This document shows, one piece after another, positions 36,388 through 56,442 of a stretch of 64,000 nucleotides of DNA. Every line of letters starts with the position of its first letter. Position 1 is the stretch's first letter. A program made the position numbers and the translations under genes. The DNA comes from Bryobacterales bacterium (GTDB lineage Bacteria; Acidobacteriota; Terriglobia; Bryobacterales; UBA6623): assembly GCA_028819575.1 (NCBI GenBank), contig JAPPLB010000147.1, positions 251 through 64,250 of the forward strand, in the 5' to 3' direction. Under the pieces are notes generated by a model. The model was not told where the DNA came from, searched no databases, and worked only from the letters and a program-made list of their open reading frames with translations.

Positions 36388-36443
36388 GGGGTGTTCTACG
36401 CCTTTCCGCCTGCAGGGGGTGAGCGGAAAGCTCCAAACACTTT
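36388..36443 (+). promoter_or_regulatory. Hairpin element copy 1 (degenerate left arm)
   Basis: Sequence ggggtgttctacgcctttccgcc-tgcagggg-gtgagcggaaagctccaaacacttt. AGGAGG at 36448 and ATG at 36465. Confidence 0.7.
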
Positions 36444-36464
36444 AACCAGGAGGATTTAACCATC

Positions 36465-36737
36465 ATGTCCAGCACCATCACCAAGCCCGTTGCGGAGGTT
36501 CGAGTCGGTAGGGTCAAGGCCGCCATCTGGCCCAACCAGACCGAATCCGGCGCCGTTCGCCACAACGTCACCTTCGCGCGCATCTACAAGGACGCCAACG
36601 GCGAGTGGAAATCCACTTCCAGCTTCGGCCGCGACGACCTGCTCGTTGTGGCGAAGGTCGCCGACCTGGCGCACACCAAGATCTTCGAGGTCGCCAACGG
36701 CCACGGCGCCGACCCGGACGGCGAACCGCAGTCCTGA
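36465..36737 (+). CDS. Small beta-rich protein, possibly PC4/YdbC-like ssDNA-binding fold
   Basis: 90 aa. RVGRVKAAIWPN...RHNVTFARIYKDANGEWKSTSSFGRDDLLVVAKVADLAHTKI loosely recalls PC4-type ssDNA binders. This is speculative. Confidence 0.45.
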   Translation: MSSTITKPVAEVRVGRVKAAIWPNQTESGAVRHNVTFARIYKDANGEWKSTSSFGRDDLLVVAKVADLAHTKIFEVANGHGADPDGEPQS

Positions 36738-36753
36738 TCCCCAGCCGTTCCCA

Positions 36754-36781
36754 GGCGGGGCGAAAGCCCCGCCTTTTTTTC
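36754..36781 (+). terminator. Rho-independent terminator
   Basis: GGCGGGGC-GAAA-GCCCCGCC followed by TTTTTTT. Confidence 0.8.
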
Positions 36782-36818
36782 ATGTTCTTGCTTCCAATGC
36801 CCGGAGAAACATCGTCTC

Positions 36819-37328
36819 ATGCCGCCTCGAAAACCACCCTACAGTGCCAAGGCCGTCTCGAATTTCTTCCTGGCCAAAAGCCGGAAAATCACACAGATGA
36901 AGCTCCACAAGCTCCTCTACTTCGCCCACGGCTGGCACCTCGGACTCACCAGTCTGCCCCTGTTGGACGAGATGGTTGAGGCTTGGGATCACAGCCCCAT
37001 CGTGCCCTCCGTCTTCCACGAATTCAAACTCTTCGGCAGCCGCCCCATCACCTGTTTCGCCCGGGAGTTCAACCCTGATGAATTTACACGCGAAATCGTT
37101 CCTCCCGTCGATGCCAGCGACACGTTCGTCCATGATCTGCTGGAACGTATCTGGAAAGTCTACAATGGTTTCTCCGACGACCAGTTGTTCCATATGACTC
37201 GCGCCGCGGGCTCTCCCTGGTCGAAAACTCACAACGAGCATCCCGGTATCAAGGGCGTCGATATCCCCAACCAGTTGTTCGCCGAGCACTTCGCCGAAAA
37301 GGTCCGGGAAAATGCCCGATCAGCCTGA
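36819..37328 (+). CDS. Panacea (DUF4065/SocA-like) domain antitoxin candidate
   Basis: MKLHKLLYFAHGWHLGLTSLPLLDEMVEAWDHSPIVPSVFHEFKLFG matches the DUF4065 core (KL.KLLYF..g..l......l..e...AW.hGPV). Confidence 0.75.
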   Translation: MPPRKPPYSAKAVSNFFLAKSRKITQMKLHKLLYFAHGWHLGLTSLPLLDEMVEAWDHSPIVPSVFHEFKLFGSRPITCFAREFNPDEFTREIVPPVDASDTFVHDLLERIWKVYNGFSDDQLFHMTRAAGSPWSKTHNEHPGIKGVDIPNQLFAEHFAEKVRENARSA

Positions 37329-37692
37329 TACAGAAGACGTTCGAGACAAGGCTACCGAGAATACGCGCCAACAAGCCGGCGAACCGCAAGTCGACGTCGG
37401 TTCTCTTGATCAGGCAGAGCACGATGAGCGGCTGAAACAGCTTCAGCAGGATCGTCTAGAACGAAAAAAATACGCGGAGAAAATCTTTCTTCTGATCGTC
37501 ATTTGGCTTGGGGTGATCATCTCACTGCTATTCCTGCAAGGTTTCTGCAACCTGTTACGGACTAGCCCGGATTGCCAACCATGCTTCTTTCTGTCCGATG
37601 CGGTGTTGATCGCCACCGTCACCACTACGACCGCCAGCGTCGTAGCCCTGTTCGTGTTGGTCGCCAAGTACTTGTATCCGAAACGTCCTTGA
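37312..37692 (+). CDS. Small 2-TM protein, candidate membrane toxin partner of the Panacea protein
   Basis: 17-nt overlap with the upstream gene. Acidic/coiled N-terminus, then IFLLIVIWLGVIISLLFLQGF and VLIATVTTTTASVVALFVLVAKYLY. Confidence 0.5.
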   Translation: MPDQPDTEDVRDKATENTRQQAGEPQVDVGSLDQAEHDERLKQLQQDRLERKKYAEKIFLLIVIWLGVIISLLFLQGFCNLLRTSPDCQPCFFLSDAVLIATVTTTTASVVALFVLVAKYLYPKRP

Positions 37693-37996
37693 ACCTGAAA
37701 TCCCTCGCCCTTCACCATGTGCTGCAAGGCTGCGAGGAAGCCCTGCCAGAACGCCGATCGGCAGTCCTGAAAGCTGCCTTTTCGTCCCCTGACAGGAACC
37801 CGAACCTGTTGAACACCCGCCGTGCGCGCACAGCCGCGCAGGGAGCCGCGATCCCGACTTCATGCATACCCATGGGCCTTTTTTCGCTGTAACGCGCAGG
37901 ACGGCCCGCAGAGCACGGATTGACGCCTATTACAGACGTACTCACCGACCGTTTTGACCGATTCCGCCGCGAATCCACGGTTTCACCCCCCGTCGA

Positions 37997-38047
37997 GGGT
38001 TCTCCGCTTTCCGCCAGGTCCGGGTGAGCGAAAAGCTCCCAACCCTT
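37997..38047 (+). promoter_or_regulatory. Hairpin element copy 2
   Basis: Sequence gggttctccgctttccgcc-aggtccgg-gtgagcgaaaagctcccaaccctt. CAGGAGGA, then ATG 38070. Confidence 0.75.
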
Positions 38048-38069
38048 ACGAACAGGAGGAAAACTCAAC

Positions 38070-38333
38070 ATGGCTAACAGCACAACCACCACCGATCCGC
38101 AGCGAACCGGACTGTTCGCTGCCTTGCGCAGTGCGAATGCTGACGAGTTGCTGGCTTATAATGCCGTCGAAGAGGTTCGCAACATGGCCGCTCAGAACAT
38201 CGACGAGAAGTTCGAAGTCCAAAACGCGAAGTTCGACGCTGTGAACGCCAGCATCAATTCGCTCCGCTGGATGACTGGCGGCCTTTTGATCCCCATTTCA
38301 TTGGGCATCATTGGTCTTTTGTTGAAGAGCTGA
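38070..38333 (+). CDS. DUF1640-like coiled-coil protein with C-terminal TM (paralog of 35868)
   Basis: 87 aa with the same architecture as 35868..36146. Confidence 0.55.
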   Translation: MANSTTTTDPQRTGLFAALRSANADELLAYNAVEEVRNMAAQNIDEKFEVQNAKFDAVNASINSLRWMTGGLLIPISLGIIGLLLKS

Positions 38334-38346
38334 CCTCTTCACTCCC

Positions 38347-38390
38347 GGCCGTCGCCGCTAGGCCCCAGCGGCGGCGGCCTTTCTTTCTCC
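38347..38390 (+). terminator. Rho-independent terminator
   Basis: GGCCGTCGCCGC...GCGGCGGCGGCC (1 mismatch) followed by TTTCTTTCT. Confidence 0.6.
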
Positions 38391-38530
38391 CTCACCACTG
38401 GCGATCACCAATCTCTCTGCCCTTGAATTGCAAGCTCAGAGAGATTGCGCCTGGCGCTCCTTCTCTCGACACCTTCCCCACACGGTGTTGCTGAGAGAAG
38501 CTCCCCCGCTCGGCTGACCGTCCCCTGGTC

Positions 38531-38581
38531 GGGTTCTCCGCTTTCCGCCTGGCAGTCGTGAGCGGAAAGCTCCAAACCCTT
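38531..38581 (+). promoter_or_regulatory. Hairpin element copy 3
   Basis: Sequence gggttctccgctttccgcc-tggcagtc-gtgagcggaaagctccaaaccctt. CAGGAGGA, then ATG 38605. Confidence 0.75.
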
Positions 38582-38604
38582 ACATCCAGGAGGACCACTT
38601 CACC

Positions 38605-39420
38605 ATGGCAGATCAAGACCCCGATGAATCCTTGGAAGAGAAACGCAACAGCTACGAGCGCAAGCTTTACGCCAAGCGCGAGAGGCTGCTCGCACGCGCC
38701 GACAAGGCCGAGCGGGAAGGCGACGCCCGCATCAAGAGAGCCAACGACGACGCTTCGGTGATCCCGCTGGGACAGCCGATCCTCGTAGGCCACCACTCGG
38801 AAAAGCGCGACCGCAACTTTCGCAAGCGGATCAACACCAACTTCACCAAAGGCCACGATCTGAAGCAGAAGGCTTCGAGGCTCCGCCAGCGGGCGGCCGG
38901 CGTCGGAACGGCCGGGATCTCTTCGGACGATCCCGATGCGGTCGTCAAGCTCAGCGAGAAGCTGGAGGAACTCGAAAAGAAGCAGCGGCTCTACAAGGCG
39001 ATCAACAAGGCCTTGCGCAAGGCCGACCGCACCGGCAGCGACGAGGAGCTGAAGGAGCTGGGGCTCAGCGACAAGACCATCGCCGAGCTGAAGACTCCCG
39101 ACTTCGCCGGCTATCGCGGCATCCCCTCTTACGTTCTCTCGAACAACAGCTCGAACATGCGCCGGATCCGCCAGCGGATCGAGGCGCTGCGGGAGGCCGT
39201 GGACGACCGGACGAGCGAAGAGGTCCACGGTGAAATTCGCATCGTGGACAACGTGGAAGAGAACCGCGTGCAGGTTTTCTTCCCCGGCGTTCCTTCACAG
39301 GAGGTTCGCTCGAAGCTCAAGCAGAACGGTTTCCGATGGTCGCCCACGGCGGGAGCGTGGCAGAGGCATCGGAGCGAAGCCGCGCTGTGGTGGGCGCGGC
39401 GATGCTGCGGAGTGGAGTAA
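38605..39420 (+). CDS. DUF3560 domain protein
   Basis: GQPILVGHHSEKRDRNFRKRI plus a C-terminal VQVFFPGVPSQEVRSKLKQNGFRWSPTAGAWQR module. Recalled as the DUF3560 pattern common on plasmids. Confidence 0.7.
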   Translation: MADQDPDESLEEKRNSYERKLYAKRERLLARADKAEREGDARIKRANDDASVIPLGQPILVGHHSEKRDRNFRKRINTNFTKGHDLKQKASRLRQRAAGVGTAGISSDDPDAVVKLSEKLEELEKKQRLYKAINKALRKADRTGSDEELKELGLSDKTIAELKTPDFAGYRGIPSYVLSNNSSNMRRIRQRIEALREAVDDRTSEEVHGEIRIVDNVEENRVQVFFPGVPSQEVRSKLKQNGFRWSPTAGAWQRHRSEAALWWARRCCGVE

Positions 39421-39437
39421 CCCCATGTCCGCAACCT

Positions 39438-39478
39438 GGCCCTTGGGGATCAACCCGATGCCCAAGGGCCTTTTTTTA
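39438..39478 (+). terminator. Rho-independent terminator
   Basis: Perfect 10-bp stem GGCCCTTGGG/CCCAAGGGCC, then 7 T. Confidence 0.8.
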
Positions 39479-39479
39479 T

Positions 39480-39505
39480 GCGCTTGAGCTTCCGCGCTTG
39501 AGCGC
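39480..39505 (+). repeat. GCGCTTGAGC tandem motif, copy A
   Basis: Sequence gcgcttgagc-ttcc-gcgcttgagcgc, immediately after a terminator. Confidence 0.6.
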
Positions 39506-39699
39506 CATTCCGATCCAGAGAGACTGACGTCGATGTCCAGCGGCCGCAGCTTCACTGGATCAATATTCGAATCCAGCGAGTTTCGGTCCGGACGCGATTG
39601 CTCTGTCCGCGAAAACAGTGTCAGATTTCATCACGCTTGCGGCCGACGTCGCCACTTCTCATTCCCGTAATCTGAAGTCAGAGCACTTGGAGCCCTCTC

Positions 39700-40005
39700 A
39701 TGAGCCAACTCTACGATCCCGACAAGGAACGCCCCGCATGGTCATCGGCCAAGCCCATCCCCTGCGCCGATTGCGGCACCCTTCTCGAAGACGACTGGTG
39801 GAAGAGCGGACCGCAGGCTAGCGTCTGCCGTCGATGCCAGAACAAGCGCTACGAAGCCAAGACCCGGGGAACCCCCGAAGGCGAGCGCCGCCGCAAGCGC
39901 AAGACGCTGCTCGCCAAGCTCAAGCGCCTCGAAGACCGCATGGAGCGCGATCAGCGCACCCATGCGCAGGTCTGTGAAGAGCTGAAGTCCCTCAGCAACT
40001 CCTGA
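39700..40005 (+). CDS. Small zinc-ribbon + basic coiled-coil protein
   Basis: 101 aa with CADC...CRRC, then an R/K-rich helix. No hairpin element upstream. Confidence 0.5.
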   Translation: MSQLYDPDKERPAWSSAKPIPCADCGTLLEDDWWKSGPQASVCRRCQNKRYEAKTRGTPEGERRRKRKTLLAKLKRLEDRMERDQRTHAQVCEELKSLSNS

Positions 40006-40111
40006 CCTCAACAACCAACTTCGGCGTGCGGCGCCGGAGCGGGCCCCGATCGATGGGCTCGTCCGGCTTTCCCTAGCTGCTCTTTACTTGAGCCTTGTCC
40101 TTCCTCGCGGC

Positions 40112-40165
40112 GGGTTCTCCGCTTTCCGCCAGTCACAGGTGAGCGGAAAGCTCCCCACCCGCCTT
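40112..40165 (+). promoter_or_regulatory. Hairpin element copy 4
   Basis: Sequence gggttctccgctttccgcc-agtcacag-gtgagcggaaagctccccacccgcctt. CAGGAGG, then ATG 40182. Confidence 0.75.
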
Positions 40166-40181
40166 ACAGGAGGTTTCATCG

Positions 40182-40442
40182 ATGACGCAGAAAACCCACT
40201 CGATCATCGCCTACACCGCCGATGCCGACATCTACTGCCCCGGCTGCGCCCGCGAGTACTTCAAGCTCATCCACGGATGGAAGTTCGCCCTGGCGCTGCT
40301 TAGCGCTCCGCACGACCAGCACGGCATTCCGGAAACCATCAAGGACCAGGCCGGCAACGAAGCCGGCGTGGTTTTCGCGATCAGCGAGCCCGCCGACTAC
40401 CCCGAAGCCTGTTGCGCCTGTTTCGAGCTCATCCGCGATTGA
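40182..40442 (+). CDS. Small Cys4 protein
   Basis: 86 aa with CPGC near the N-terminus and CCAC near the C-terminus. Confidence 0.5.
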   Translation: MTQKTHSIIAYTADADIYCPGCAREYFKLIHGWKFALALLSAPHDQHGIPETIKDQAGNEAGVVFAISEPADYPEACCACFELIRD

Positions 40443-40509
40443 TCCTTACTCGCTCTCCGCTCGTTTTCGTTCCGTCTTTCAGCACTGTGTTCGTACTGTC
40501 CCCCTGCCC

Positions 40510-40561
40510 GGGTTCTCCCGCTTTCCGCCGTCCCAGGGTGAGCGAAAAGCTTTGAACCCTT
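40510..40561 (+). promoter_or_regulatory. Hairpin element copy 5
   Basis: Sequence gggttctcccgctttccgcc-gtcccagg-gtgagcgaaaagctttgaaccctt. CAGGAGGA, then ATG 40585. Confidence 0.75.
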
Positions 40562-40584
40562 TCGAGGCAGGAGGACAATCAATC

Positions 40585-40998
40585 ATGGCAAGCGCGAGAA
40601 AGACCGTCAGCTTCCGTTGCGACCGCGCGTTCTTCGATCGCATGGTCGAGGCCAGCAACAACCACCGGCTCAGCCTTTCCGAATGGATGCGGCGATCATT
40701 GGAGGAAACCGTCGAGCTGCAGCTCCCCCGCAGCGTCTCCAGCGGCTGGAAACAGGCCATCCTCGAGGAAGGCAAGATCGGAGCCTTCTTTGCCGGCAAC
40801 ACCGGCAATCTCCCGGAGAACCTGATCGGGAAGGCCATCGAGGCTGTCACCGATCAAGGCATCACCTGGACCGGCGTCATCGACGAGGTGCGTTTTCGGA
40901 CCCACCGCATCGTGATCGTCAAGGTCCGGCCGCGCGTCGCGCGCAGCCAGGTCGTCCGGGAAGAGCAGCCCACGGCCGTCGACAGCGGCGCCGTCTGA
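40585..40998 (+). CDS. Ribbon-helix-helix (CopG/Arc-like) domain protein
   Basis: Start at ATG 40585 after the SD. KTVSFRCDRAFFDRMVEASNNHRLSLSEWMRRSLEE fits a beta-strand/helix/helix pattern. Confidence 0.55.
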   Translation: MASARKTVSFRCDRAFFDRMVEASNNHRLSLSEWMRRSLEETVELQLPRSVSSGWKQAILEEGKIGAFFAGNTGNLPENLIGKAIEAVTDQGITWTGVIDEVRFRTHRIVIVKVRPRVARSQVVREEQPTAVDSGAV

Positions 40999-41021
40999 GC
41001 CACGTCGCCGCGCTCATCCGT

Positions 41022-41053
41022 CCCGCCGCGCCTTGCGGCGGGGCTTTCCCTTG
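41022..41053 (+). terminator. Terminator-like hairpin
   Basis: CCCGCCGC-GCCTT-GCGGCGGG, then CTTTCCCTT (weak T-tract). Confidence 0.5.
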
Positions 41054-41054
41054 A

Positions 41055-41125
41055 AAAACCCTCTCTCCGGAGCCGCTGACGCGGCGATCCGCTTCGAAGT
41101 GGACCCCCAGCACCCCCGGATTCGA
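41055..41125 (+). repeat. 71-nt intergenic repeat, copy 1
   Basis: 56/71 identical by hand alignment to 46012-46082. Contains the GCCGC-TGAC-GCGGC hairpin and GTGGACCCCCAGCACCCCCGGATTCGA. Confidence 0.65.
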
Positions 41126-41407
41126 GCCGGATCCGGATGGCGCTGCATCCTGCCGAGCCCATTATCTTGCGTTCGATGAGAACGCGCCACCCCAACATCT
41201 TGTGTCTCCGAAGTTCCGCGGACGGCAACATCTTGGTGCCCGCCCCTGGCTTCGCCCCGGCTGCGATCGCACACAGCGCTGGCTCAACTTCACGAGCCAG
41301 CGCGCTCGGTGCCGGCGCCCTTTCGCTCTTGCCACTCAAGCCGTTCCAAGAGACGATGCGCATGAGACTCCCCATGCGCTTGCGCCCCTTCGCCGCCCTC
41401 GCCTGGC

Positions 41408-41458
41408 GGGTTCTCCGCTTTCCGCCTGGTACGGACGAGCGGAAAGCTCCCAACCCTT
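41408..41458 (+). promoter_or_regulatory. Hairpin element copy 6
   Basis: Sequence gggttctccgctttccgcc-tggtacgg-acgagcggaaagctcccaaccctt. CAGGAGGA, then ATG 41479. Confidence 0.75.
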
Positions 41459-41478
41459 GCCACCAGGAGGATTCCATC

Positions 41479-41736
41479 ATGGAGAACGTCATCATCGCCA
41501 ACCCCACGTCCGTTGCCGAATCGTGGGAAATGATCTGTCCCGGCTGCCGCCGCGACGACGAGATCCGCATTAAAGCGACCATCGAGGTCATCCTGCACCG
41601 CCACGGAACGGACCCCACCGATTCCGATACCGAGTGGGACAACGCCAGCATCGCCTTCTGCGAGCACTGCGGCTTCACCGGCATTGTTCGCGATTTCTAC
41701 GACGCCTTCAGCAAGCACAACAGCGGCGGCCGTTAG
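41479..41736 (+). CDS. Small Cys4 (zinc-ribbon-like) protein
   Basis: 85 aa starting at ATG 41479, with CPGC...CEHC. Confidence 0.5.
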   Translation: MENVIIANPTSVAESWEMICPGCRRDDEIRIKATIEVILHRHGTDPTDSDTEWDNASIAFCEHCGFTGIVRDFYDAFSKHNSGGR

Positions 41737-41800
41737 GCCGCCGTTACCCCTCCCAGTAGCTGCTGCCGGCGGCAGCCCTTCCGTTTCCTTCCCCTGAGTC

Positions 41801-41851
41801 GGGTTCTCCGCTTTCCGCCAAGCAAGGGCGAGCGGAAAGCTCCAAACCCTT
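41801..41851 (+). promoter_or_regulatory. Hairpin element copy 7
   Basis: Sequence gggttctccgctttccgcc-aagcaagg-gcgagcggaaagctccaaaccctt. CAGGAGGA, then ATG 41875. Confidence 0.75.
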
Positions 41852-41874
41852 ACCCCTCAGGAGGACACAACTCA

Positions 41875-42411
41875 ATGAGTGCTTTCGTAGTCAACCCGAC
41901 GCACATCGCCACGTGTGCGCAGATCATCCGCGAGATCGTTTTCCAATACGAAGACGATCCCCCCAGCGACACCGGCATTCGCATGGACCTGGCCATGGCG
42001 AATGTCATCAGCGTCGCCTACCGCTACGGTCCGGAAGGCCAGCGCGACAACCAGGCGATGTTCGCCTCGACCCTCACCAAGCTCTCCGATGCCAACTGGG
42101 ACACCATTGACGCGGCTCTCCCCGCAGGAATCAGCGACGTGAACGAAGCCTGCTTCGACGACGGCTACACGTTCTCGGACTTCCTCAGCGATTGCCGTTC
42201 CGCCGAGGCCATCCCCTACAGCAACGCCGAGGCCTGCGAGTACCTCAGTTGCCTCAACTACCAGTCGTGCGAATCGCCCGGCTGGAAAGACAGCAAGGCT
42301 CGGATGTGGATTCTCGAATCGAAGTCCGTTCTCGCCGGACGGCTTGCCAGGCAGGTTCTGGGAAACCGCCGCGTTTGGTCCACTCGCGAACCCGATCATC
42401 AAGTCGCCTGA
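41875..42411 (+). CDS. Hypothetical acidic protein
   Basis: 178-aa ORF behind hairpin copy 7. No family recognised. Confidence 0.55.
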   Translation: MSAFVVNPTHIATCAQIIREIVFQYEDDPPSDTGIRMDLAMANVISVAYRYGPEGQRDNQAMFASTLTKLSDANWDTIDAALPAGISDVNEACFDDGYTFSDFLSDCRSAEAIPYSNAEACEYLSCLNYQSCESPGWKDSKARMWILESKSVLAGRLARQVLGNRRVWSTREPDHQVA

Positions 42412-42435
42412 TCGCTCTTCCCCTTCTCCTTCCCA

Positions 42436-42468
42436 CCCCCGCCGCGATCGCGGCGGGGGTTTTCTTTG
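42436..42468 (+). terminator. Rho-independent terminator
   Basis: CCCCCGCCGCGA/TCGCGGCGGGGG palindromic stem, then TTTTCTTT. Confidence 0.75.
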
Positions 42469-42509
42469 TCGATACCGCGCTGCCGGCCGCACCGCGCTTC
42501 CTTCGCTGC

Positions 42510-42558
42510 GGGTTCTCCGCTTTCCGCCTGACACGGGCGAGCGGAAAGCTCCCAACCC
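42510..42558 (+). promoter_or_regulatory. Hairpin element copy 8
   Basis: Sequence gggttctccgctttccgcc-tgacacgg-gcgagcggaaagctcccaaccc. AAAGGAG, then GTG 42585. Confidence 0.7.
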
Positions 42559-43763: not shown

Positions 43764-43814
43764 GGGTTCTCCGCTTTCCGCCAGGTACGGGTGAGCGGAA
43801 AGCTCCCAACCCTT
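43764..43814 (+). promoter_or_regulatory. Hairpin element copy 9
   Basis: Sequence gggttctccgctttccgcc-aggtacgg-gtgagcggaaagctcccaaccctt. CAGGAGGA, then ATG 43838. Confidence 0.75.
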
Positions 43815-44095: not shown

Positions 44096-44145
44096 GGGTT
44101 CTCCGCTTTCTGCCATCTACGGGCGAGCGGAAAGCTCCAAACCCA
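44096..44145 (+). promoter_or_regulatory. Hairpin element copy 10
   Basis: Sequence gggttctccgctttctgcc-atctacgg-gcgagcggaaagctccaaaccca. CAGGAGAG, then ATG 44168. Confidence 0.75.
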
Positions 44146-44674: not shown

Positions 44675-44691
44675 TCTCTCCGCTTTCCGCC
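44667..44691 (+). promoter_or_regulatory. Hairpin element copy 11, left arm only
   Basis: Sequence ggttct-aatc-tctccgctttccgcc. No GAGCGGAAAGCTCC partner, SD or ORF follows. Minus-strand genes start 60 nt later. Confidence 0.6.
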
Positions 44692-44753
44692 AGGTAACAC
44701 GAATCGGTTCGGGTGTACAGCATGCTGAATCGCCAAGGCCAGGAGAATACTAG

Positions 44754-46195: not shown

Positions 46196-46222
46196 TGGAC
46201 GTCTTGTCAAAATCCTCGATCC

Positions 46223-46277: not shown

Positions 46278-46285
46278 GGACGCCT

Positions 46286-46939
46286 ATGAAAACCATCGCC
46301 ATCGTCAGCCAGAAAGGTGGTTCCGGAAAGACCACCCTGGCCTTGCACCTGGCCGTCGCTTCGGCCGTTGCCGGCCGGAACACCGCCGTCATCGACCTCG
46401 ATCCGCAGGCTTCCGCTGCCAACTGGTCGGACCGAAGGGAAGCGGAACTGCCGGTCGTGCTCTCGGCTCATGCGAGCCGCTTGCGCCACGAGATCGCTCG
46501 CGTCCGTGAGACCGGCGGCGAAATGCTCTTCGTCGATACCGCTCCGCATTCCGACAGCGCAGCTCTCGAAGCTGCGCAGCGCGCCGATCTGGTGCTCATC
46601 CCCTGCCGGCCGGCGATCCTCGATCTGGAGGCGATCACCAATACTCTCGCCTTCCTTCGCACCACCGGCACGCCCGTTCTCGTGGTTCTCAACGCGATCG
46701 CCGCCACGGGTCAGGACGCGCGGCTGGCCACCGAAGCGCTCTCCGCCCACCAGGTCGAAACCTGCCCCGTCCGGCTGGGCCGCCGCATCGCCTTCGCTCG
46801 CGCGCTCGTCAGCGGCCAAGCCGCGCAGGAGTTCGAGCCCGGCGGCAAGGCCGCTCGGGAAGTTGCAGAATTGCATACCTTCGTTCTTGCACGTTTGCAG
46901 GACTTCAAACCTTCAACCAACGGAAACCCCTTGACATGA
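46286..46939 (+). CDS. parA: ParA/Soj-family partition ATPase (small type Ib-like)
   Basis: MKTIAIVSQKGGSGKTT deviant Walker A, with DLDPQ and FVDTAP. Start at ATG 46286. Confidence 0.9.
   Translation: MKTIAIVSQKGGSGKTTLALHLAVASAVAGRNTAVIDLDPQASAANWSDRREAELPVVLSAHASRLRHEIARVRETGGEMLFVDTAPHSDSAALEAAQRADLVLIPCRPAILDLEAITNTLAFLRTTGTPVLVVLNAIAATGQDARLATEALSAHQVETCPVRLGRRIAFARALVSGQAAQEFEPGGKAAREVAELHTFVLARLQDFKPSTNGNPLT
46862..46901 (+). repeat. Second TGCA-repeat cluster inside the 3' end of parA
   Basis: Carries GTTGCAGAATTGCATA, TTGCAC and TTTGCAGG. Shares TGCAGAATTG with the upstream cluster. Confidence 0.45.
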
Positions 46940-47178
46940 CCAACAACGCTTTCGCTTCCGCTTTGTCCAAGAAAAATTCGCCGACGCCGGATCCGGCCGA
47001 GGCCTCGCGCCCCGCCGCTGCCGGCAAGGTCAAACGCAAACACGTCGGAGGCTATTTCGATCCGGAGGTCGCGCGGCGTTTGCGGATGCTGGCGTCGGAA
47101 GAGGAAACCACCGTGCAGGAGCTGCTGACCGAAGCCCTGCGGCTGATGTTCAACAAGCGCGGCTTGTCGGTTCTCTGA
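46936..47178 (+). CDS. ParG-like RHH centromere-binding protein candidate
   Basis: 80 aa, ATGA-coupled to parA. Disordered N-terminus, then KRKHVGGYFDPEVARRLRMLASEEETTVQELLTEALRLMFNK, which looks like an RHH. Confidence 0.6.
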   Translation: MTNNAFASALSKKNSPTPDPAEASRPAAAGKVKRKHVGGYFDPEVARRLRMLASEEETTVQELLTEALRLMFNKRGLSVL

Positions 47179-47197
47179 TCTTCCCGAGGAACACGCC

Positions 47198-47440
47198 ATG
47201 CTTGACACGACCCTTCACCTTCCCACTCCGGCCCTGTTGGTTTTCGTTTTTGTCGTCGCCTCCGTCTGCTGGGCGCTCGGATCGCGGCTTACCCGTAAGT
47301 CTGGTGATGGACCTTTCCGGTCCTGGCCTTGCCGCTGGTTCAATCTGCTCGACATCCTCGCGGTGGCTTGCTTCATCGCCGTCATCACTGTTGTTTCGTT
47401 CTTCCTGGTCCACTATCCGGCCGGGCCGGTTTCACCCTGA
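47198..47440 (+). CDS. Small 2-TM membrane protein
   Basis: 80-aa ORF with two hydrophobic helices. Confidence 0.45.
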   Translation: MLDTTLHLPTPALLVFVFVVASVCWALGSRLTRKSGDGPFRSWPCRWFNLLDILAVACFIAVITVVSFFLVHYPAGPVSP

Positions 47441-47509
47441 CAGGGACCGCCTTGCGGCCTTCGGTCCGGCTGCCGGCCGGTTGCTACAATGAGGGCCTCG
47501 CGAGGCCCC

Positions 47510-48139
47510 ATGTCCTCCACCACTTCAGCGCCTCTCTCTCATCAACAGCGCGAATCGAGCGAGCTCTATCACAGCGATGCCTACGCCTGGTCCCTCGAGC
47601 AGTCCGACGCCCTTCGCCGCCGCGACTTTGACGCCATCGATTGGGAGAATGTCATCGAGGAGATCGAATCCGTGGGCAGGACCGAAAAACGTATCTGGAC
47701 CTCGAAATGCGCCAATACCATCACGCACCTTCTCAAGATCGAGCACGCCAGGATGGCGACGCCTGAAGAGGTTACCGGCTGGGAAGAGGAAGTTCAGGAC
47801 TTCCGCACCGACATGGCTGGGGTCATCGTTGACAATCCCCGCCTGCAGAACCTCTACCCCGAAATGTTCCGCGCCGCCTGGCACCAGGGGCGCAGCAAAG
47901 CGGTCCGCGATCTCGCTTCCTACGATGTTCAGCACAACCTCGAGCCCGATCATCGATCAGCCCGCAAGACTCGCGACCGTACGCTTCCTTCTTCCTGCCC
48001 CTACCGCCTCCACGACGTGACCGCCTTCACCTACGACCGCAAAAACGCCCTTCATGAGCATGACCCCGAAATTCTTCCCGAGGCGGTCCGGCGTTCGCTC
48101 GACTACCACCGCTCGCGCGCGCAGCAGTGGGACCGCTAG
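47510..48139 (+). CDS. DUF29 family protein, copy 1
   Basis: ELYHSDAYAWSLEQSDALRRRDFDAIDWENVIEEIESVGRTEK is the DUF29 signature as I recall it. Start at ATG 47510. Confidence 0.75.
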   Translation: MSSTTSAPLSHQQRESSELYHSDAYAWSLEQSDALRRRDFDAIDWENVIEEIESVGRTEKRIWTSKCANTITHLLKIEHARMATPEEVTGWEEEVQDFRTDMAGVIVDNPRLQNLYPEMFRAAWHQGRSKAVRDLASYDVQHNLEPDHRSARKTRDRTLPSSCPYRLHDVTAFTYDRKNALHEHDPEILPEAVRRSLDYHRSRAQQWDR

Positions 48140-48306
48140 TTTCCTTCCTTTTGCGCAGCTTTTCGCCCATCGCTTCGTTGCGGTGCTCCTCTTCGCTTCG
48201 ACGCCTTGATACGCTCGCCGTCAGCGGCATCTGAATGTTCGTGCCCGCTCTCTTCGTTCCTTTCGGATGCCGGCCACTTGCTACAATAAATCGCTCGCGA
48301 GGCCCC

Positions 48307-48936
48307 ATGTCCACGGCTGCTTCAACACCCTCCACCCTTGAGCAGCAGCGCTCCGCCGAGCTCTACCACGATGACCCCTATTCCTGGTCGCTCGAGCAAG
48401 CCGATGCTCTACGGCGCCGCGACTTCGCTTCTGTCGATTGGGAGAATGTCATCGAGGAGATCGAAGCGGTGAGCCGCAATGAAGCCAGCACCTGGGTTTC
48501 CAATTGCGCGAACGCCATCGAGCACATGCTCAAGATCGAGCATTGCAAGCTCGTTCAGCCCTACGTCGTTCGCAATTGGAGTGATGAGATTCCCGGATAC
48601 CGCGACGGCATGGAAACAGCTTCCCGCAAGAATCCGGGCATCACCTCGCGCTTCGACGAGCTCTTCCGCGAAGCCTGGAACGACGCTCGCAACCACACTC
48701 TGACTGCGCTCTCCCGCTATGACGTGGAGCACAAGCTTTCGCCCGATCGTCCACAGTCTTACAAGCGCCGCAACATGCTTCTCCCCCGCGAGTGCCCCTA
48801 CGATTTTGCCGACGTCACCGGCATCTTCCATGTTCGCGGCGACCGCAAACCCCACTACGACCGCTTCGTTCTTCCGCCTTCCATTCAGAAGATCGTCGAT
48901 GAGCGCTGCCGCGATTCTCCTTCCCGCGACCGCTGA
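48307..48936 (+). CDS. DUF29 family protein, copy 2
   Basis: ELYHDDPYSWSLEQADALRRRDFASVDWENVIEEIEAVSRNEA. Start at ATG 48307. Confidence 0.75.
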   Translation: MSTAASTPSTLEQQRSAELYHDDPYSWSLEQADALRRRDFASVDWENVIEEIEAVSRNEASTWVSNCANAIEHMLKIEHCKLVQPYVVRNWSDEIPGYRDGMETASRKNPGITSRFDELFREAWNDARNHTLTALSRYDVEHKLSPDRPQSYKRRNMLLPRECPYDFADVTGIFHVRGDRKPHYDRFVLPPSIQKIVDERCRDSPSRDR

Positions 48937-48948
48937 TTCGCTCCCTCC

Positions 48949-49560
48949 TTGACCATTTTCGATCCTTCCTCTCCTCCTTTACTCTCGACTCCTTTGCCCT
49001 CCGGCGTTATCTCCGACCTCCGCATCTGGTCCTTTCGCCAGGCGGCGGCTCTGCGCCGCCATGAGGTCGAATCTCTCGCCTGGGACGACCTGGCCGCTCA
49101 GATCGGCTTTCTCGCCGACGTGCAGGTTCAATACTTCTCCTGGCTCTGCTCTTCCGTCATATCCGCCTATCTCATCATGGAGTTCTGTCCCACTCCTTCC
49201 CGGGAATTGCTCTTTGGCCTGCACCGTTCCATTCACAGCTACCCGTTCGCTTTCGAGCGCCTCTTTCGCAACTGTCCTTCCCTTCATCCGGAGTTGAAAC
49301 CGGCTTTTTCCTCTGCATGGAAGACCGCTCGGGATTCCGCCTGTAGCGACCTTGCTCGTCTTTCCCTCGACGAGTACGACGAGAGTGATTACCACAACGC
49401 CTCTGCGGCTTTCGATTCCTTGCTCCCCTCAAGAAATCCCTACCGCTTCGAGCATGTCACCGGCTTCCATCTTCTTGACGATGGCCTTTCTCAGCTTGAA
49501 AGCTTCACCGTTCCCCCCGCCCGCGTTCTTGAATCCATCGATCGGCGTCAGAACGTCTAG
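48949..49560 (+). CDS. Divergent DUF29-like protein, copy 3
   Basis: SDLRIWSFRQAAALRRHEVESLAWDDLAAQIGFLAD keeps the layout but is much more diverged. Confidence 0.5.
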   Translation: MTIFDPSSPPLLSTPLPSGVISDLRIWSFRQAAALRRHEVESLAWDDLAAQIGFLADVQVQYFSWLCSSVISAYLIMEFCPTPSRELLFGLHRSIHSYPFAFERLFRNCPSLHPELKPAFSSAWKTARDSACSDLARLSLDEYDESDYHNASAAFDSLLPSRNPYRFEHVTGFHLLDDGLSQLESFTVPPARVLESIDRRQNV

Positions 49561-49792
49561 CTCTTCCCGGCTTTTCGTGTTCAGCTCGATCCCTTGATCC
49601 TTCTTTCCCGAGCCATCGAGATTGCCGAGATCATCGAAGCTCTCTTCTCTCCCTCGAAGCTGCCGTGGCCTCTCGCCATGGCGGTCGGGGAAGGGAAGTC
49701 CCGTCAACTCTACTCCACGGTCCGGTACGACCCCAACGAGGTTTCCGTATCGTGTTTCGTTCGGCCCTCTCACCGAGCGCCTCTCAGATCAG

Positions 49793-49830
49793 ATCAGCGG
49801 CTCAGGCCGCTGATGGCAGCTTTCCCTTTT
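49793..49830 (+). terminator. Terminator-like hairpin
   Basis: ATCAGCGGC-TCAG-GCCGCTGAT, then GGCAGCTTTCCCTTTTC. Confidence 0.45.
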
Positions 49831-49833
49831 CGC

Positions 49834-49859
49834 GCGCTCGAGCAACTTCGCTTGAACGC
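49834..49859 (+). repeat. GCGCTTGAGC tandem motif, copy D (variant)
   Basis: Sequence gcgctcgagc-aact-tcgcttgaacgc, directly after a terminator-like hairpin. Confidence 0.5.
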
Positions 49860-50074
49860 TTTTTGAAGCATGAGCAATGAGATCCGGACACGGATGCCTT
49901 TGCTCGGCCAAGCCAGGGTAATCGGCGCCCTCCGCGTCGCCTCACCCCGTCGATGGCCACCGACCCCGTTTTTTGCGCGAACTGCTCTGCACTGACCTTC
50001 TTTCGCCGGCAAGAGAAGTTGCGTCGACGGCCGTTTCCTTGCCGCCCGCGGCCGAGCGAGCCAATACTGTCTGC

Positions 50075-50605
50075 ATGCACGCCACCGAGGAAAGCCGCAT
50101 CACCTGGCTCTCGAACCTCTTCCGCGATCACGACCGCTACATGAAGAGCGCCCGCCGCAGCCGCTGGTCGTTCTTCACCCTGATCGCTGCCTTCGCAGTG
50201 TATATATGCGTGCTGCCCTTCCTGCGCAACCCCACGCACATCGCGATCGCCGCCGCGATCTTCCTGCTCTTCGCCTTGCAATACATCATCGTCGAACTGA
50301 TCGATGAGCGCCCCGGTTCTCCGCTTCCCGCCAGACTGCGGCGAGCGGTAAGCTCACGAACCTCACCACCAAGGAGAAACGACATGGACAATCCCTTCGA
50401 CTGCAACAAGCTCAACGAGCACTGCGAAACCCTCCGCAGGGAGTTGCTGCACGCCTCGCAGAACGGCCACCTCGATCCCCTCAGAATGACCGAGCAAGAC
50501 GAGAAGAACATCATCCATCACGTCAATGAGCTCTCGAAGGTCTGCTCGAAGGTCCTCGTCTACATGAACTCGATGAAGAAAACCCGAGAAGCTCTCTTCT
50601 CGTAA
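50075..50605 (+). CDS. 2-TM protein ORF that reads in frame through hairpin copy 12; true 3' end uncertain
   Basis: From ATG 50075: MHATEESRITWLSNLFRDHDRYMKSARRSRWSFFTLIAAFAVYICVLPF...IAAAIFLLFALQYIIVELI. Paralogous in layout to 50804. No stop occurs before 50605. Confidence 0.35.
   Translation: MHATEESRITWLSNLFRDHDRYMKSARRSRWSFFTLIAAFAVYICVLPFLRNPTHIAIAAAIFLLFALQYIIVELIDERPGSPLPARLRRAVSSRTSPPRRNDMDNPFDCNKLNEHCETLRRELLHASQNGHLDPLRMTEQDEKNIIHHVNELSKVCSKVLVYMNSMKKTREALFS
50315..50362 (+). promoter_or_regulatory. Hairpin element copy 12 (diverged)
   Basis: Sequence ggttctccgcttcccgcc-agactgcg-gcgagcggtaagctcacgaacc. AAGGAG, then ATG 50384. Confidence 0.65.
50384..50605 (+). CDS. Small helical protein behind hairpin copy 12
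   Basis: 73 aa, MDNPFDCNKLNEHCETLRRELL... SD spacing is the same as in the other hairpin modules. Confidence 0.45.
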   Translation: MDNPFDCNKLNEHCETLRRELLHASQNGHLDPLRMTEQDEKNIIHHVNELSKVCSKVLVYMNSMKKTREALFS

Positions 50606-50803
50606 TCTCTACGCCTGCGGGGCTCGCCCGAGCGGACCCCGCCTTGCGGTCCTCTCGCCGGCGCCGGCGCCGACCGCTCTTTCCCGGCCTTTCGAAGCAG
50701 AGAAGTCTCGACGTCGCTTTTCCGCTCTGTCTGCGGTTCTCAGGAACGAGCTGTCGCGATCCCGCGCTTGTCGGATGCCCCCATCGGCTTCATACTTCCC
50801 CCT

Positions 50804-51175
50804 ATGGACCATCACTACCGCGAACACCTGCGCATCGACACGCTCCGCGCACGCCGCCGCGCCTACGTCATCATCGCCGGCTTCGCCGGCTTCCTCGCTA
50901 CGCTCTACTTCACGAGCGATCCCGACGACACCCTTACCCTCGCGATCGCACTGGTCTTCTACTTCGTTACCGTGCTGATCGTCCCCGACCGCTGGTTCGG
51001 CCGCGGCGCTCTCGACCGCCACGACGATTCCTCTTCCGCCAGCGGCCCGCAGCCGGCCTTACGTAAGCAACCTCCGGCGGCTCCGGCCCGGCTTCAAGCC
51101 TGGCCGGCGAGGGAAGGACCGCTCCCGCCGCTCCCCCCAGGTGCGCGGCGGCCGCATGAGAGGACTGAATCATGA
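50804..51175 (+). CDS. 2-TM protein, paralog of 50075
   Basis: MDHHYREHLRIDTLRARRRAYVIIAGFAGFLATLYF...LAIALVFYFVTVLIV, then a low-complexity tail. A TTG at 50768 is an alternative start. Confidence 0.45.
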   Translation: MDHHYREHLRIDTLRARRRAYVIIAGFAGFLATLYFTSDPDDTLTLAIALVFYFVTVLIVPDRWFGRGALDRHDDSSSASGPQPALRKQPPAAPARLQAWPAREGPLPPLPPGARRPHERTES

Positions 51176-51738
51176 TCGAGCCTTCTGGTGAAACCCGCCG
51201 GCTGGTCTGGGACAATCTGATCGATTCGGACCGCATGTGCCGCTACTACGGCTACTTGGCCCACCGCCTCAAACGGCTGAATGATCTGTTGCAAGTCTCG
51301 GGCATCGTGCTCGTCGTACTCACTATCTCTTCATTCTTATACCGGCTACCTGGCTGGATCGTCTTTTCGGCTGTCAACCTCGCAGCTTTGTCCTTCGCTC
51401 TCTCGTCGATTCGCGGCTATTCCGCCAAGGCGCTCCGCAGCAACGAGATCTTCAGGCAGCTTGGACGGCTCAACGTCGAATGGGAGCTGCTCTGGAACAA
51501 TGTGAGCACCAAGGACGACGACACCGTTCTGGAGTCCTGGAAGAAGCTCAGCGAGCGCCAGCTTGCTCTCATCGAGCGAGCTCCCTTCGATCTGCCTCTT
51601 TCCGCTTCGCTCGCCCGGAAATCGCAGCAGGAAGCCTACGAGTATTGGAGCGAGTTCGCCCGCACCCATCAGAGTTCGTCCACGGCTGTTGTCCCCGGCG
51701 AGTCGCGCAGCGCCGCTGCAAGCATCGCCCATCACTGA
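51172..51738 (+). CDS. 2-TM protein with SLATT-like topology (speculative)
   Basis: ATGA-coupled to the previous gene. Amphipathic helix (RMCRYYGYLAHRLKRLNDLLQ), two TM helices, then a helical cytoplasmic tail. Confidence 0.45.
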   Translation: MIEPSGETRRLVWDNLIDSDRMCRYYGYLAHRLKRLNDLLQVSGIVLVVLTISSFLYRLPGWIVFSAVNLAALSFALSSIRGYSAKALRSNEIFRQLGRLNVEWELLWNNVSTKDDDTVLESWKKLSERQLALIERAPFDLPLSASLARKSQQEAYEYWSEFARTHQSSSTAVVPGESRSAAASIAHH

Positions 51739-51766
51739 TCGGCAAAACTGCGGAGTTCGCTTGCCC

Positions 51767-52255
51767 TCAGCGGCGCCGCCACGCTCTCGGGTCATAGGCC
51801 TCCTTGTAGCCCCACATGCCGCGCCGCTCGCTTTTCGCCGCGCTCTCGGCATCCTGGTAGCGGTTGTCAAAGCAGGCGATCGCATGGCCGGACCGCACCA
51901 GCCATTCGCCCACGTCGCGGCCCTGGCAGTTCACCGTCCCCAGGACACGGCCGTAGTAGTCGAACCCCTCGATCCGCACTTTCACCCGCCTGCCGCCAAT
52001 CTCGCGAATCAACGCTCCTTTGACCCGCTTGCCGTGGTTGAACCAGAACCCGTAGTGGTGCTTCGCAGGCTGATTCCACTCTGGAGCATCCAGGGCCGCC
52101 AAGCGCACCCGGTAGCCGGCGACCTTGATCCCATCGCCGTCCGTGACATACGGCCGTCCGGTGATCGTGTCGCCCGGCCGCTTGCGCCACGCATGTTTCG
52201 CGATCAGGTAGAACGCAACCAGGATCGCGATCAGCAGCAGCAGTTCCATCGTCAT
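51767..52255 (-). CDS. Membrane-anchored thermonuclease (SNase-like) family protein
   Basis: N-terminal TM helix. Then VTDGDGIKV...VRLAALDAPE...GRVLG...ESAAKSERRGMW, which are staphylococcal-nuclease-type motifs. Confidence 0.75.
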   Translation of the reverse strand: MTMELLLLIAILVAFYLIAKHAWRKRPGDTITGRPYVTDGDGIKVAGYRVRLAALDAPEWNQPAKHHYGFWFNHGKRVKGALIREIGGRRVKVRIEGFDYYGRVLGTVNCQGRDVGEWLVRSGHAIACFDNRYQDAESAAKSERRGMWGYKEAYDPRAWRRR

Positions 52256-52265
52256 TCACCCGCTG

Positions 52266-52280
52266 CGGGTTCTCCGCTTT
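52266..52280 (+). promoter_or_regulatory. Hairpin element copy 13, truncated after 15 nt
   Basis: The sequence gggttctccgctttc is followed directly by A/T-richer unrelated sequence (aaaacttctcgacaccg...). Confidence 0.6.
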
Positions 52281-56439: not shown

Positions 56440-56442
56440 GAT

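Follow-up and report, generated by a model that had tools for sequence, protein, structure and literature searches.

A covarying hairpin element repeated ahead of small accessory genes in Bryobacterales conjugative elements, a probable shared expression switch

The conjugative element and its hairpin copies

A stretch of 64,000 nucleotides (nt) from a Bryobacterales bacterium (contig JAPPLB010000147.1, positions 251 to 64,250; hereafter the window) was analysed with respect to a hairpin element that recurs directly ahead of small genes. Domain searches showed that a conjugative element spans ~8 to 52 kb of the window, with all of its recognised genes on the plus strand. Homologues of VirB4, VirB11, VirB9, VirB10, VirB6 and VirB8 and of the coupling protein of a type IV secretion system (T4SS) were found, as well as RepA, two ArdC proteins, a RepB′-type primase, ParA with a ribbon–helix–helix (RHH) partner, and DUF29 proteins. 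The T4SS, ArdC, primase and ParA genes bear out the plasmid-like context that the initial annotation had proposed from the letters alone. The hairpin copies are limited to the small-gene block downstream of the T4SS genes.

A pattern for the inner arms matched 11 times in the window, always on the plus strand, whereas 0 matches were expected from shuffles. Repeat finding returned the same 11 copies and two left-arm stubs. A covariance model built from 144 related copies and run on the whole window with filters off gave exactly 11 full copies (44–78 bits, E ≤ 5.5e-9); its other matches were reverse-strand shadows of the palindrome, or noise. The eleven full copies and two stubs in one orientation described before were thus confirmed. 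No right-arm-only copy was found within the window. Each full copy is followed, as described before, by an AGGAGG-like Shine–Dalgarno (SD) sequence and a start codon; the codon lies 20–26 nt past element position 49. The copies (each numbered unit being a copy with its gene), the stubs and the other features needed below are as follows.

36391..36440, plus strand: copy 1, 51.1 bits, variant left flank GTGTTCTACGCC; its 90-amino-acid (aa) gene starts at 36465
37997..38045, plus strand: copy 2, G35 to A, giving C15·A35; ATG at 38070
38531..38579, plus strand: copy 3, ahead of the DUF3560 gene; ATG at 38605
40112..40160, plus strand: copy 4, with a 7-bp outer stem GGCGGGT/ACCCGCC; ATG at 40182
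40510..40559, plus strand: copy 5, ahead of the RHH gene (40585), with one C more in the internal loop, A35 and the conserved loop GTCCCAGG
41408..41456, plus strand: copy 6; ATG at 41479
41801..41849, plus strand: copy 7; ATG at 41875
42510..42558, plus strand: copy 8, 48 nt past the terminator at 42435–42460; GTG at 42585
43764..43812, plus strand: copy 9; ATG at 43838
44096..44144, plus strand: copy 10, C16 to T, giving T16·G34; ATG at 44168, gene from a large paralogous family
50314..50363, plus strand: copy 11, which departs most from the others (C14/T36; GCGGTAAGC as right arm); ATG at 50384
44677..44696, plus strand: stub with the left arm and first loop bases, at a rearrangement junction after which minus-strand genes follow
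52267..52281, plus strand: stub with the left arm GGGTTCTCCGCTTTC, at the right-hand border of the region rich in elements
40585..40998, plus strand: gene of the candidate cognate regulator, 137 aa, N-terminal RHH and beta-rich C-terminal domain, behind its own variant copy
16173..17000, plus strand: gene of a RepB′-type DNA primase (Pfam PF16793, E = 1.7e-27)
42435..42460, plus strand: strong intrinsic terminator after unit 7 (terminator scan)
36753–36774, 38347–38379, 39438–39470 and 41020–41044: further intrinsic terminators

The substitutions listed earlier for copies 2, 5 and 10 were found as stated. On the other hand, many of the genes had been called Cys4, and two CxxC motifs were present in only 3 of the 11 element-led proteins of the window. 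A clear terminator ends only 5 of the 11 units. None of the copies appeared in the terminator scan: the element is followed by TTACNNCC-AGGAGG, not by the U/T run that makes a GC-rich hairpin an intrinsic terminator.

Two observations concern single copies. Read on the minus strand, the stub at 52267–52281 is GAAAGCGGAGAACCC and lies 17 nt before the start of a SNase-like gene (51767–52255, minus strand); this geometry resembles that of the right arm before plus-strand genes, and GC falls just beyond. The 168-aa protein behind copy 10 (44168–44674) belongs to a hugely expanded paralogous family with 183 tblastn matches at 32–96% identity. In four related loci and others its members form tandem arrays with a period of ~600 nt and a hairpin for each gene. 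The family looks like a diversifying one, possibly of anti-defence decoys.

Conservation, distribution and pairing of the arms

The consensus of the family begins with a pyrimidine tract at positions −11 to −6, confirming the pyrimidine-rich tract noted before, and continues as GGGTT-CTCC-GCTTTCCGC-C-A-N7-G-Y-GA-GCGGAAAGC-TCCM-AACCC, followed by TTAC-N2-4-CC-AGGAGGA-N7-ATG. The 49-nt element folds into a 5-bp outer stem, a 4×4 internal loop, a 9-bp inner stem and a 13-nt apical loop (C-N8-GYGA). The fold predicted in the initial annotation is therefore kept in its two stems and internal loop, which are backed by covariation, and corrected in its apical loop, given there as 12 nt; likewise the half-sites lie 22 bp apart centre to centre, not ~21. 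AGGAGG begins 9–10 nt after the element, and the start codon stands ~7 nt past the SD sequence. No positional conservation was seen from −40 to −12. The pyrimidine tract forms on average 3.6 of 8 Watson–Crick pairs with the SD sequence, compared with 2.3 in controls; a helix between the two was considered, and this modest excess marks a tendency, not a conserved helix. The apical-loop pairs 20–29 and 21–28 showed no covariation.

Conservation is uneven along the element. In 387 of 433 copies the variable loop segment measures 8 nt, and in the rest 6–9 nt. The right box, positions 30–43 (G30–C43, GAGCGGAAAGCTCC), is the most conserved part, and the left internal loop and outer-left arm are clearly less so. 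One diverged lineage has GGAG where the left CTCC would stand, and this GGAG pairs with the right CTCC. The suggestion that both CTCC strings act as anti-SD sequences was weakened by this replacement and by the much poorer conservation of the left loop compared with the right. Where orthologous units encode proteins of 58–90% identity, the arms are unchanged while the seven central loop bases differ, indicating strong purifying selection on the arms. The right box holds a nested 13-bp palindrome, GAGC-GGAAA-GCTC (GAGC-N5-GCTC; positions 30–42, e.g. 38560–38572), in which GAGC and GCTC are essentially invariant and natural variation falls in the central five bases. As a mini-hairpin this sequence would compete with the long hairpin; it recalls the GCGAAAGC-type mini-hairpins reported at the G4, ssiA and N4 initiation sites (PMC13037366).

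When one genome per prokaryotic species was scanned for the exact pattern, 54 loci were returned, all from four metagenome-assembled genomes (MAGs) of Bryobacterales (Acidobacteriota). One Bryobacterales MAG carries more than 100 copies over several diverged copies of the same type of conjugative element. A metagenome scan in which the inner 5 bp of the stem were left free added ~120 further true copies; these 5 bp were TTTCC/GGAAA in 116 of 122 true copies and departed by a single mismatch in the other six, with no alternative inner stem beyond such mismatches in that scan. Compensated inner stems were found only among the more distant relatives that protein homologues led to, where canonical copies lie in loci L129–L131 and L135 and variant copies in L128, L130 and L134. 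As sampling widened over the four MAGs and the metagenomes, distinct copies rose from 254 to 340 and then to ~430. The element is present, for example, in the assemblies ERZ24894577, ERZ23495235 and SRR23258159. An Rfam cmscan gave 0 matches at gathering thresholds over the whole window and 0 at E ≤ 1 over 36000–52500, PLSDB megablast of 36–45 kb gave no match, and the element was not described in the literature consulted on single-stranded DNA (ssDNA) promoters, primase and single-strand initiation (ssi) hairpins, conserved-upstream repeats and start-associated motifs.

The relatives also showed how closely the element is coupled to gene starts. The copies are co-oriented inside every locus, with no mixed locus, and 243 of 248 copies (~98%) have an SD sequence and a start codon 19–27 nt past the element. 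In related elements 75–85% of the genes downstream of virB8 carry it and none of the T4SS genes does; a prophage with a DUF3560 homologue holds no copy. Variants of the element track the downstream gene. Orphan arms are nearly absent, numbering two (one right-arm-only, one left-arm-only) against 399 paired copies. The element is thus a genuine, directional hairpin tied to start codons, in support of a regulatory role.

These data bear on the view that the element is a recombination site, such as an attC-like cassette boundary of an integron, or a selfish repeat of the repetitive extragenic palindrome (REP) or miniature inverted-repeat transposable element (MITE) kind. Arrays of small open reading frames (ORFs), each with an imperfect hairpin, would suit this view, as would the two left-arm stubs at rearrangement junctions and the two orphan arms elsewhere. 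However, the element stands strictly in one orientation and always at a gene start, and it travels with the downstream SD sequence and start codon, whereas attC belongs to the 3′ end of the upstream cassette. Its polarity is also opposite to that of attC, R″(RYYYAAC)...R′(GTTRRRY), with GTT here 5′ and AAC 3′, and Pfam recognised no integrase domain among the scanned window ORFs. We regard this explanation as very improbable. The initial annotation had named scattering without relation to start codons as the mark of a REP/MITE-like repeat, and the ~400 co-oriented copies of related genomes, nearly all of them at a fixed distance from their gene, do not behave in that way.

Whether the arms pair was assessed from covariation. 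Across 144 distinct copies, 96.9% of cells were paired. Both-sided changes occurred in 6 of the 14 pairs, compared with 1.7 in shuffles (0 of 500 shuffles as high), and 22 double-change cells were counted where 2.5 were expected, far above slid controls. In elements otherwise canonical, gene-specific compensated variants were seen at pairs 1–49, 3–47, 4–46, 5–45, 14–36, 15–35 and 18–32. They include the outer stems GGATT/AATCC, GGGTG/CACCC and TCGCT/AGCCA and the inner pairs C14:G36, G14:C36 and A18:T32. T15:A35 always stands in front of the RHH gene, and the orthologues of copy 5 carry it. The 7-bp outer stem of unit 4 becomes GGCGGAT/ATCCGCC in its L128/L130 orthologue, again a compensated change, and in the distant relative L134 one element bears two compensated inner stems that differ from each other, at pairs 12–38 and 15–35. 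As far as sequence comparison can tell, compensatory changes at eight or more pairs show that arm pairing is under selection, barring template-switch "correction" of quasi-palindromes. Gene-specific covariation between bases 40 nt apart is not explained by a symmetric DNA-binding protein, indicating that intrastrand pairing matters.

A proposed dual-state cassette and its alternatives

Three lines of evidence lean toward action at the level of DNA rather than mRNA. First, a strong terminator ends 47–51 nt before the unit-8 element in at least 12 diverged relatives, with no conserved promoter between, which argues that the element itself carries promoter activity. Copies placed behind terminators are at least as perfect as the rest, with all 14 pairs intact in 18 of 20. 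Second, since nothing is conserved from −40 to −12, there is no upstream promoter to put the left arm into RNA. Third, single-sided departures from pairing are mostly A·C on the plus strand, that is G·T on the template strand (50 versus 21 copies, 78 versus 32 haplotypes), and intermediates at transition-compensated pairs run 15 to 2 in the A·C direction.

The element is probably one shared expression switch for the small accessory genes of this family of Bryobacterales conjugative elements from soil Acidobacteria. As to how it might work, we propose tentatively, and with more doubt than confidence, a dual-state cassette that would serve as promoter/operator and ribosome-binding site (RBS) and could also fold as ssDNA, making it a compact, non-canonical functional analogue of Frpo that is later repressed by an element-encoded factor. 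The pyrimidine tract, the 49-nt inverted repeat, the 9-nt linker and the strong SD sequence with its start codon would together give the accessory or establishment genes a non-canonical promoter activity and an RBS. In the single-stranded state the arms would pair on the template strand, presumed to be the transferred one, and so rebuild a short duplex of the right-hand box; transcription of each gene, or priming and then transcription, could thus begin before the DNA is fully double-stranded. Once the DNA is resident and double-stranded, the box and its inverted copy, spaced by 22 bp, would form an operator through which an element-encoded repressor silences a weak promoter. A putative promoter of this kind reads −35 TTTCCG (positions 12–17), an 18-nt spacer and −10 AAAGCT (36–41), with a start near position 48. 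This reading keeps the invariant A and T of the −10 box, position 36 being variable (TAAGCT in copy 11), and the loop lengths of 6–9 nt would hold the spacer at 16–19. The mirror reading on the other strand is AAAGCG, which would explain directionality. Conserved stems thus point to a reader of duplex sequence and covariation to folding of a single strand; a loop fixed in length and free in sequence fits a spacer in the duplex state, and the place behind terminators fits promoter activity.

The candidate repressor is the RHH protein encoded at 40585. Its family is limited to the same element lineage, as narrow as the hairpin element itself, and its predicted structure (mean predicted local distance difference test, pLDDT, 71.5) shows an RHH part and then a beta-rich domain. 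A NikR-like design (RHH with an ACT-like tetramerisation domain and half-sites two helical turns apart) was considered for it and was supported neither by the predicted fold nor by a NikR match.

Several results weigh against the dual-state proposal. Symmetric changes in a palindrome can arise by template-switch correction without selection, and the A·C excess could be a mutational bias, as C-ending codons and negative skew at third codon positions (GC3) are also found in flanking chromosomal genes. A terminator-like hairpin lies within 300 nt upstream of 88 of 323 copies, compared with 59 of 340 random control windows; together with the count in the window, this speaks against the earlier claim that most modules are terminator-bounded and each its own transcription unit. 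Moreover, operon-like blocks begin with other conserved motifs and end in terminators. As most copies follow the previous gene with no terminator between, and operon heads carry other motifs, read-through mRNA containing the whole hairpin must exist. A consensus scan found no sigma-70 promoter in any copy, and the putative hexamers are poor (−35 matching 3/6, −10 AAnnnT). Folding of the template strand would give a surrogate non-template strand of AAAGCG, with no T at −7, so that host sigma-70 would see no −10 there. The 9+5-bp stem is far too short for both hexamers, unlike that of Frpo. A relaxase or oriT was recognised nowhere in the window by Pfam, NCBIfam and PDB sequence searches of unannotated ORFs; the transferred strand is therefore only presumed, and "leading region" is a provisional name for the hairpin block. 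As for the repressor, binding of the RHH protein to the element is pure inference, its model had no Foldseek match in the PDB with E < 0.1, and the rearranged relative L134 keeps its elements with no RHH gene within the 21 kb examined.

The element could instead act in mRNA. In that case promoters at operon heads would drive transcription and the hairpin would sit in the 5′ leader or between cistrons. There it could insulate or expose the SD sequence 9 nt downstream, stabilise the mRNA, or be the place where an RNA-binding protein or RNase encoded by the element binds or processes the transcript; the RNase III sites of T7, which have a bubble in the stem, offer a model. The fixed distance to the SD sequence, the fold backed by covariation, the stable predicted RNA fold and the pyrimidine tract partly complementary to the SD sequence agree with this explanation, as do the scarcity of upstream terminators and the operon-like blocks with other head motifs and terminator ends. 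In the modelled RHH protein, the small beta-rich C-terminal domain has a faint likeness to PUA-like or Upf1 barrels. However, sequence is conserved in the stems and free in the centre of the loop, and most RNA hairpins recognised by proteins show the opposite. A·C departures are commoner than G·U, units right behind strong terminators keep perfect pairing, and no conserved promoter precedes the left arm. Relatives can do without the left CTCC "anti-SD", and even at E ≤ 1 Rfam offered no match. On balance, we hold an mRNA-level element to be unlikely.

Another alternative is a purely double-stranded promoter–operator–RBS. The arms would then be weak −35/−10-like elements and the half-sites, 22 bp apart, of a dimeric or tetrameric repressor encoded by the element, such as the RHH protein, giving zygotic induction in a new host; no ssDNA fold would be involved, and covariation would be incidental, arising through palindrome dynamics (template-switch correction) or through the spread of copies. 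The conserved arm sequence, the constant length and free sequence of the loop, the terminator directly upstream of unit 8 and the nested palindrome GAGC-N5-GCTC in the right half, typical of small operators, are consistent with this, and the variant copy of the RHH gene would fit an autoregulated repressor. The architecture is nearly identical to that of repeated motifs in Cluster K mycobacteriophages, and the CUP/ArdK elements of IncN plasmids likewise repeat upstream of leading-region genes (both described below). Against it, compensation is gene-specific across at least 40 bp (pairs 1–49, 3–47, 4–46 and 5–45) in otherwise canonical elements, and L134 holds two different compensated stems within one element. 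A spacer change of ±1–2 nt would turn the half-sites by 36–72 degrees, the consensus scan found no canonical hexamers in the copies, and the likeness to the phage motifs is incomplete, since departures in those motifs give pairing no support. We hold this explanation to be unlikely.

The hairpin could also act on the incoming strand as an ssi signal, recognised by the RepB′-type or a host primase, after which an ordinary double-stranded promoter drives expression. In RSF1010, ssiA and ssiB occur once per strand in oriV, and the RepB′ primase recognises a specific 5′ tail and a 40-nt hairpin, with the primer starting 5 nt 3′ of the hairpin (PMC8567376). The likeness lies in a specific hairpin of ~40–50 nt acting on ssDNA (known for ssi) and in a primase of the same Pfam family (PF16793), encoded here at 16173–17000. 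The flanks of the template strand are held by the moderately conserved TTAC linker and the complement of the pyrimidine tract, and the right box can form a mini-hairpin of the type found at the G4, ssiA and N4 sites. Priming, however, would explain neither the fixed SD distance nor why nearly every gene has its own copy. The known ssi sites number one per strand, compared with 11 copies on one strand of the window, all at gene starts; apart from a short run of pyrimidines the element has no sequence similarity to ssiA, and the strand transferred is a presumption. This explanation is improbable.

The choice among operator, ssDNA promoter and 5′ untranslated-region element posed in the initial annotation was thus narrowed by the evidence and not cleanly settled. 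Sigma-54 (GG-N10-GC), extracytoplasmic function (ECF; GGAAC...CGT) and sigma-32 readings of the hairpin element were considered by eye, and none gave a consensus with both boxes rightly spaced upstream of the SD sequence. Other genes of the same conjugative elements carry host-type leaders (TGnTACAAT, TAnnnT; TAATCT before gene 39700) and no hairpin element. A leader TTG(C/T)TACAAT-N5-7-CTCGCGAGGCCCC-ATG stands before the ParA-linked DUF29 genes (47481–47512 and 48278–48309); it is extended −10-like, with a small inverted repeat and no strong SD sequence, and has orthologues in six related loci. As distant DUF29 paralogues in arrays carry the hairpin element, two classes of leader coexist on one element.

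Further non-coding motifs mark the heads of gene blocks. One of ~90 nt with small inverted repeats (AAACCC..GCCGCTGACGCGGCGATCCGCTTCG..GGACCCCCAGCACCCCCGGATTCGA..CCGGATCCGGATGG; window 41056–41140 and 46013–46095) is found after terminators, at gene-block heads and upstream of parA, and in eleven related loci it precedes the DUF3560 element by ~100–200 nt. Candidate roles are those of a promoter or regulatory region, a small RNA or an oriT. An inverted repeat GCGCTYGAGC-N4-6-GCTTGAGCGC with a conserved tail (39477–39520, 43608–43691 and 49826–49909) always stands just past a terminator and opens the next gene block; in two related loci it lies 47–52 nt upstream of elements. The gene-oriented motif ACATCTTGTG(T), at ~41195–41238 of the window and in 26 related loci, usually forms a direct-repeat pair 54 nt (sometimes 33 nt) apart upstream of unit-6 or DUF3560 elements and looks like the binding site of another regulator. 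Repeats of TGCAGAATTG.../TTGCAGG flank parA (46224–46277 and 46864–46901), near the sole sigma-70-like promoter match of the region (46204–46231); they are probably a partition-site or autoregulation region.

Composition and neighbouring genes were also surveyed. The plus strand has a sustained negative GC skew from 8000 to 52000 (−0.05 to −0.22), with a value of ~0 in the left flank. The GC3 skew was −0.29 and −0.31 for element genes and −0.18 for flanking chromosomal genes, so that the skew belongs only in part to the element; composition was tried as a pointer to the transferred strand and is uninformative, because flanking chromosomal coding strands are C-rich as well. The proteins at 13534 and 14508 are, by eye only, candidates for replication-relaxation-type winged helix–turn–helix proteins. 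A fusion at 18598–20832 joins about six ankyrin repeats to ArdC-N and a zincin metallopeptidase and is adjoined by the second, stand-alone ArdC (20957–21997). Between units 1 and 2, in this element only, sits a Panacea-domain (SocA-like) pair (36819–37692); neither protein had a tblastn match among 127 related loci. A GTPase-associated conflict system (GAP1-N1, double-GTPase, GASH and GAAD-metallophosphatase; 52482–58853, minus strand) adjoins the conjugative element, followed by SRAP and NYN-domain genes and DUF6166. The window's own proteins had no match in the Logan index of public contigs. The short contigs of that index each cover several genes and gave no indication of where transcripts start.

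Related systems and significance

The closest architecture is that of the extended start-associated sequences (ESAS) and start-associated sequences (SAS) of Cluster K mycobacteriophages. ESAS are ~47–50 bp long, with a 15–17 bp inverted repeat, a gap of 12–14 nt and putative SigA hexamers 17–18 bp apart, and SAS has a conserved SD motif 3–9 nt before the start codon; both are limited to the early-gene arm (PMC3203893; PMC11373665). In architecture only, the hairpin element is likewise an inverted repeat immediately followed by a conserved SD sequence that stands a few nt ahead of ATG; it too occurs in many copies of one orientation, confined to the non-structural or early part of a mobile genome, and the host chromosome has none. 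ESAS has been proposed to hold a promoter and a regulator-binding site, its function being unproven. In contrast, the two share no sequence similarity (SAS being GGGATAGGAGCCC); SigA-like hexamers are found in ESAS and not in the hairpin element, and departures in the ESAS arms lend pairing no support, whereas the hairpin element has compensatory changes. ESAS/SAS belong to actinobacteriophages, and the hairpin element to an acidobacterial conjugative element, on ~75–85% of the array genes. It is an analogue of ESAS/SAS and not a member.

In the IncN plasmids pKM101 and R46, the CUP (conserved upstream) sequence is described as a promoter with the operator of the element-encoded repressor ArdK, repeated ahead of a number of leading or establishment genes (Delver & Belogurov 1997, cited in PMC6289460). 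The likeness to CUP is a repeated conserved sequence ahead of conjugative-element genes. CUPs are longer, fewer and of sigma-70 type, and they are neither covarying hairpins nor held at a fixed distance from the start codon; PLSDB searches found no homology. The promoter–early stem-loop (PeSL) cassettes of T4-type phages place an early sigma-70 promoter beside a separate terminator-type stem-loop (PMC2839356; PMC4122927). Here too, repeated composite regulatory motifs flank small accessory ORFs in plastic regions, where repeats can mediate module shuffling, but the inverted repeat of the hairpin element overlaps its putative promoter and has no U-tract. Among chromosomal operators, the CIRCE sequence bound by HrcA in a heat-shock regulon lies between promoter and start codon and consists of a perfect 9-bp inverted repeat whose 9-nt spacer is fixed but not conserved. 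It shares with the hairpin element a 9-bp repeat of conserved primary sequence and is a DNA operator that also affects mRNA; it differs in spacer (13 nt here) and is unrelated in sequence.

Frpo is a long stem-loop whose paired stem recreates a canonical −35 (TTGACA) and −10 (TATAAT) ~17 bp apart, and it occurs once to a few times per plasmid (Masai & Arai 1997; PMC11541004; PMC9849209). Like Frpo, the hairpin element lies upstream of early genes with one common template strand and relies on intrastrand pairing, with expression proposed before synthesis of the complementary strand. Unlike Frpo, it is 49 nt long, with a 9+5-bp stem and a 4×4 bubble, lacks canonical boxes, precedes nearly all the genes and is firmly joined to the SD sequence. 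The earlier idea of an Frpo-like ssDNA hairpin promoter consequently failed on anatomy, the stem being too short and no −35/−10 hexamers being reconstituted. Functionally, the hairpin element belongs with the repeated regulatory cassettes of mobile elements, namely ESAS/SAS, IncN CUP and T4 PeSL, and it may also be grouped with the single-strand signals Frpo and ssi. By sequence or defining features it is a member of none of the five.

Going further, the copies may represent a new class of compact (~50 nt) ssDNA initiation signals, one before nearly every establishment gene, read by an element-encoded factor or by a non-canonical mode of a host polymerase or primase. We consider this possible and, on balance, doubtful. 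If it were true, genes would switch on independently from the incoming strand and be silent once the DNA is double-stranded and the repressor is made, and the Frpo principle would reach another phylum in a design that is unrelated, far smaller and repeated massively.

The interest of the family rests on its scale, its clean covariation and its link to early expression after conjugation. How genes are expressed early after conjugative entry is an active question, and Frpo, from enterobacterial plasmids, is the only characterised solution. The family offers a natural experiment in the poorly studied Acidobacteriota, with hundreds of copies, covariation, sequence conservation that implies a specific reader, and a one-to-one link to start codons. 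It may also help to explain the ESAS/SAS motifs of mycobacteriophages, which share its architecture. Moreover, the element defines a regulon of mostly uncharacterised small proteins that are candidate anti-defence or establishment factors, and its model is a ready search tool for such genes in metagenomes. If the element is indeed active as a single strand, ssDNA-dependent early expression would be widespread and would have evolved more than once.

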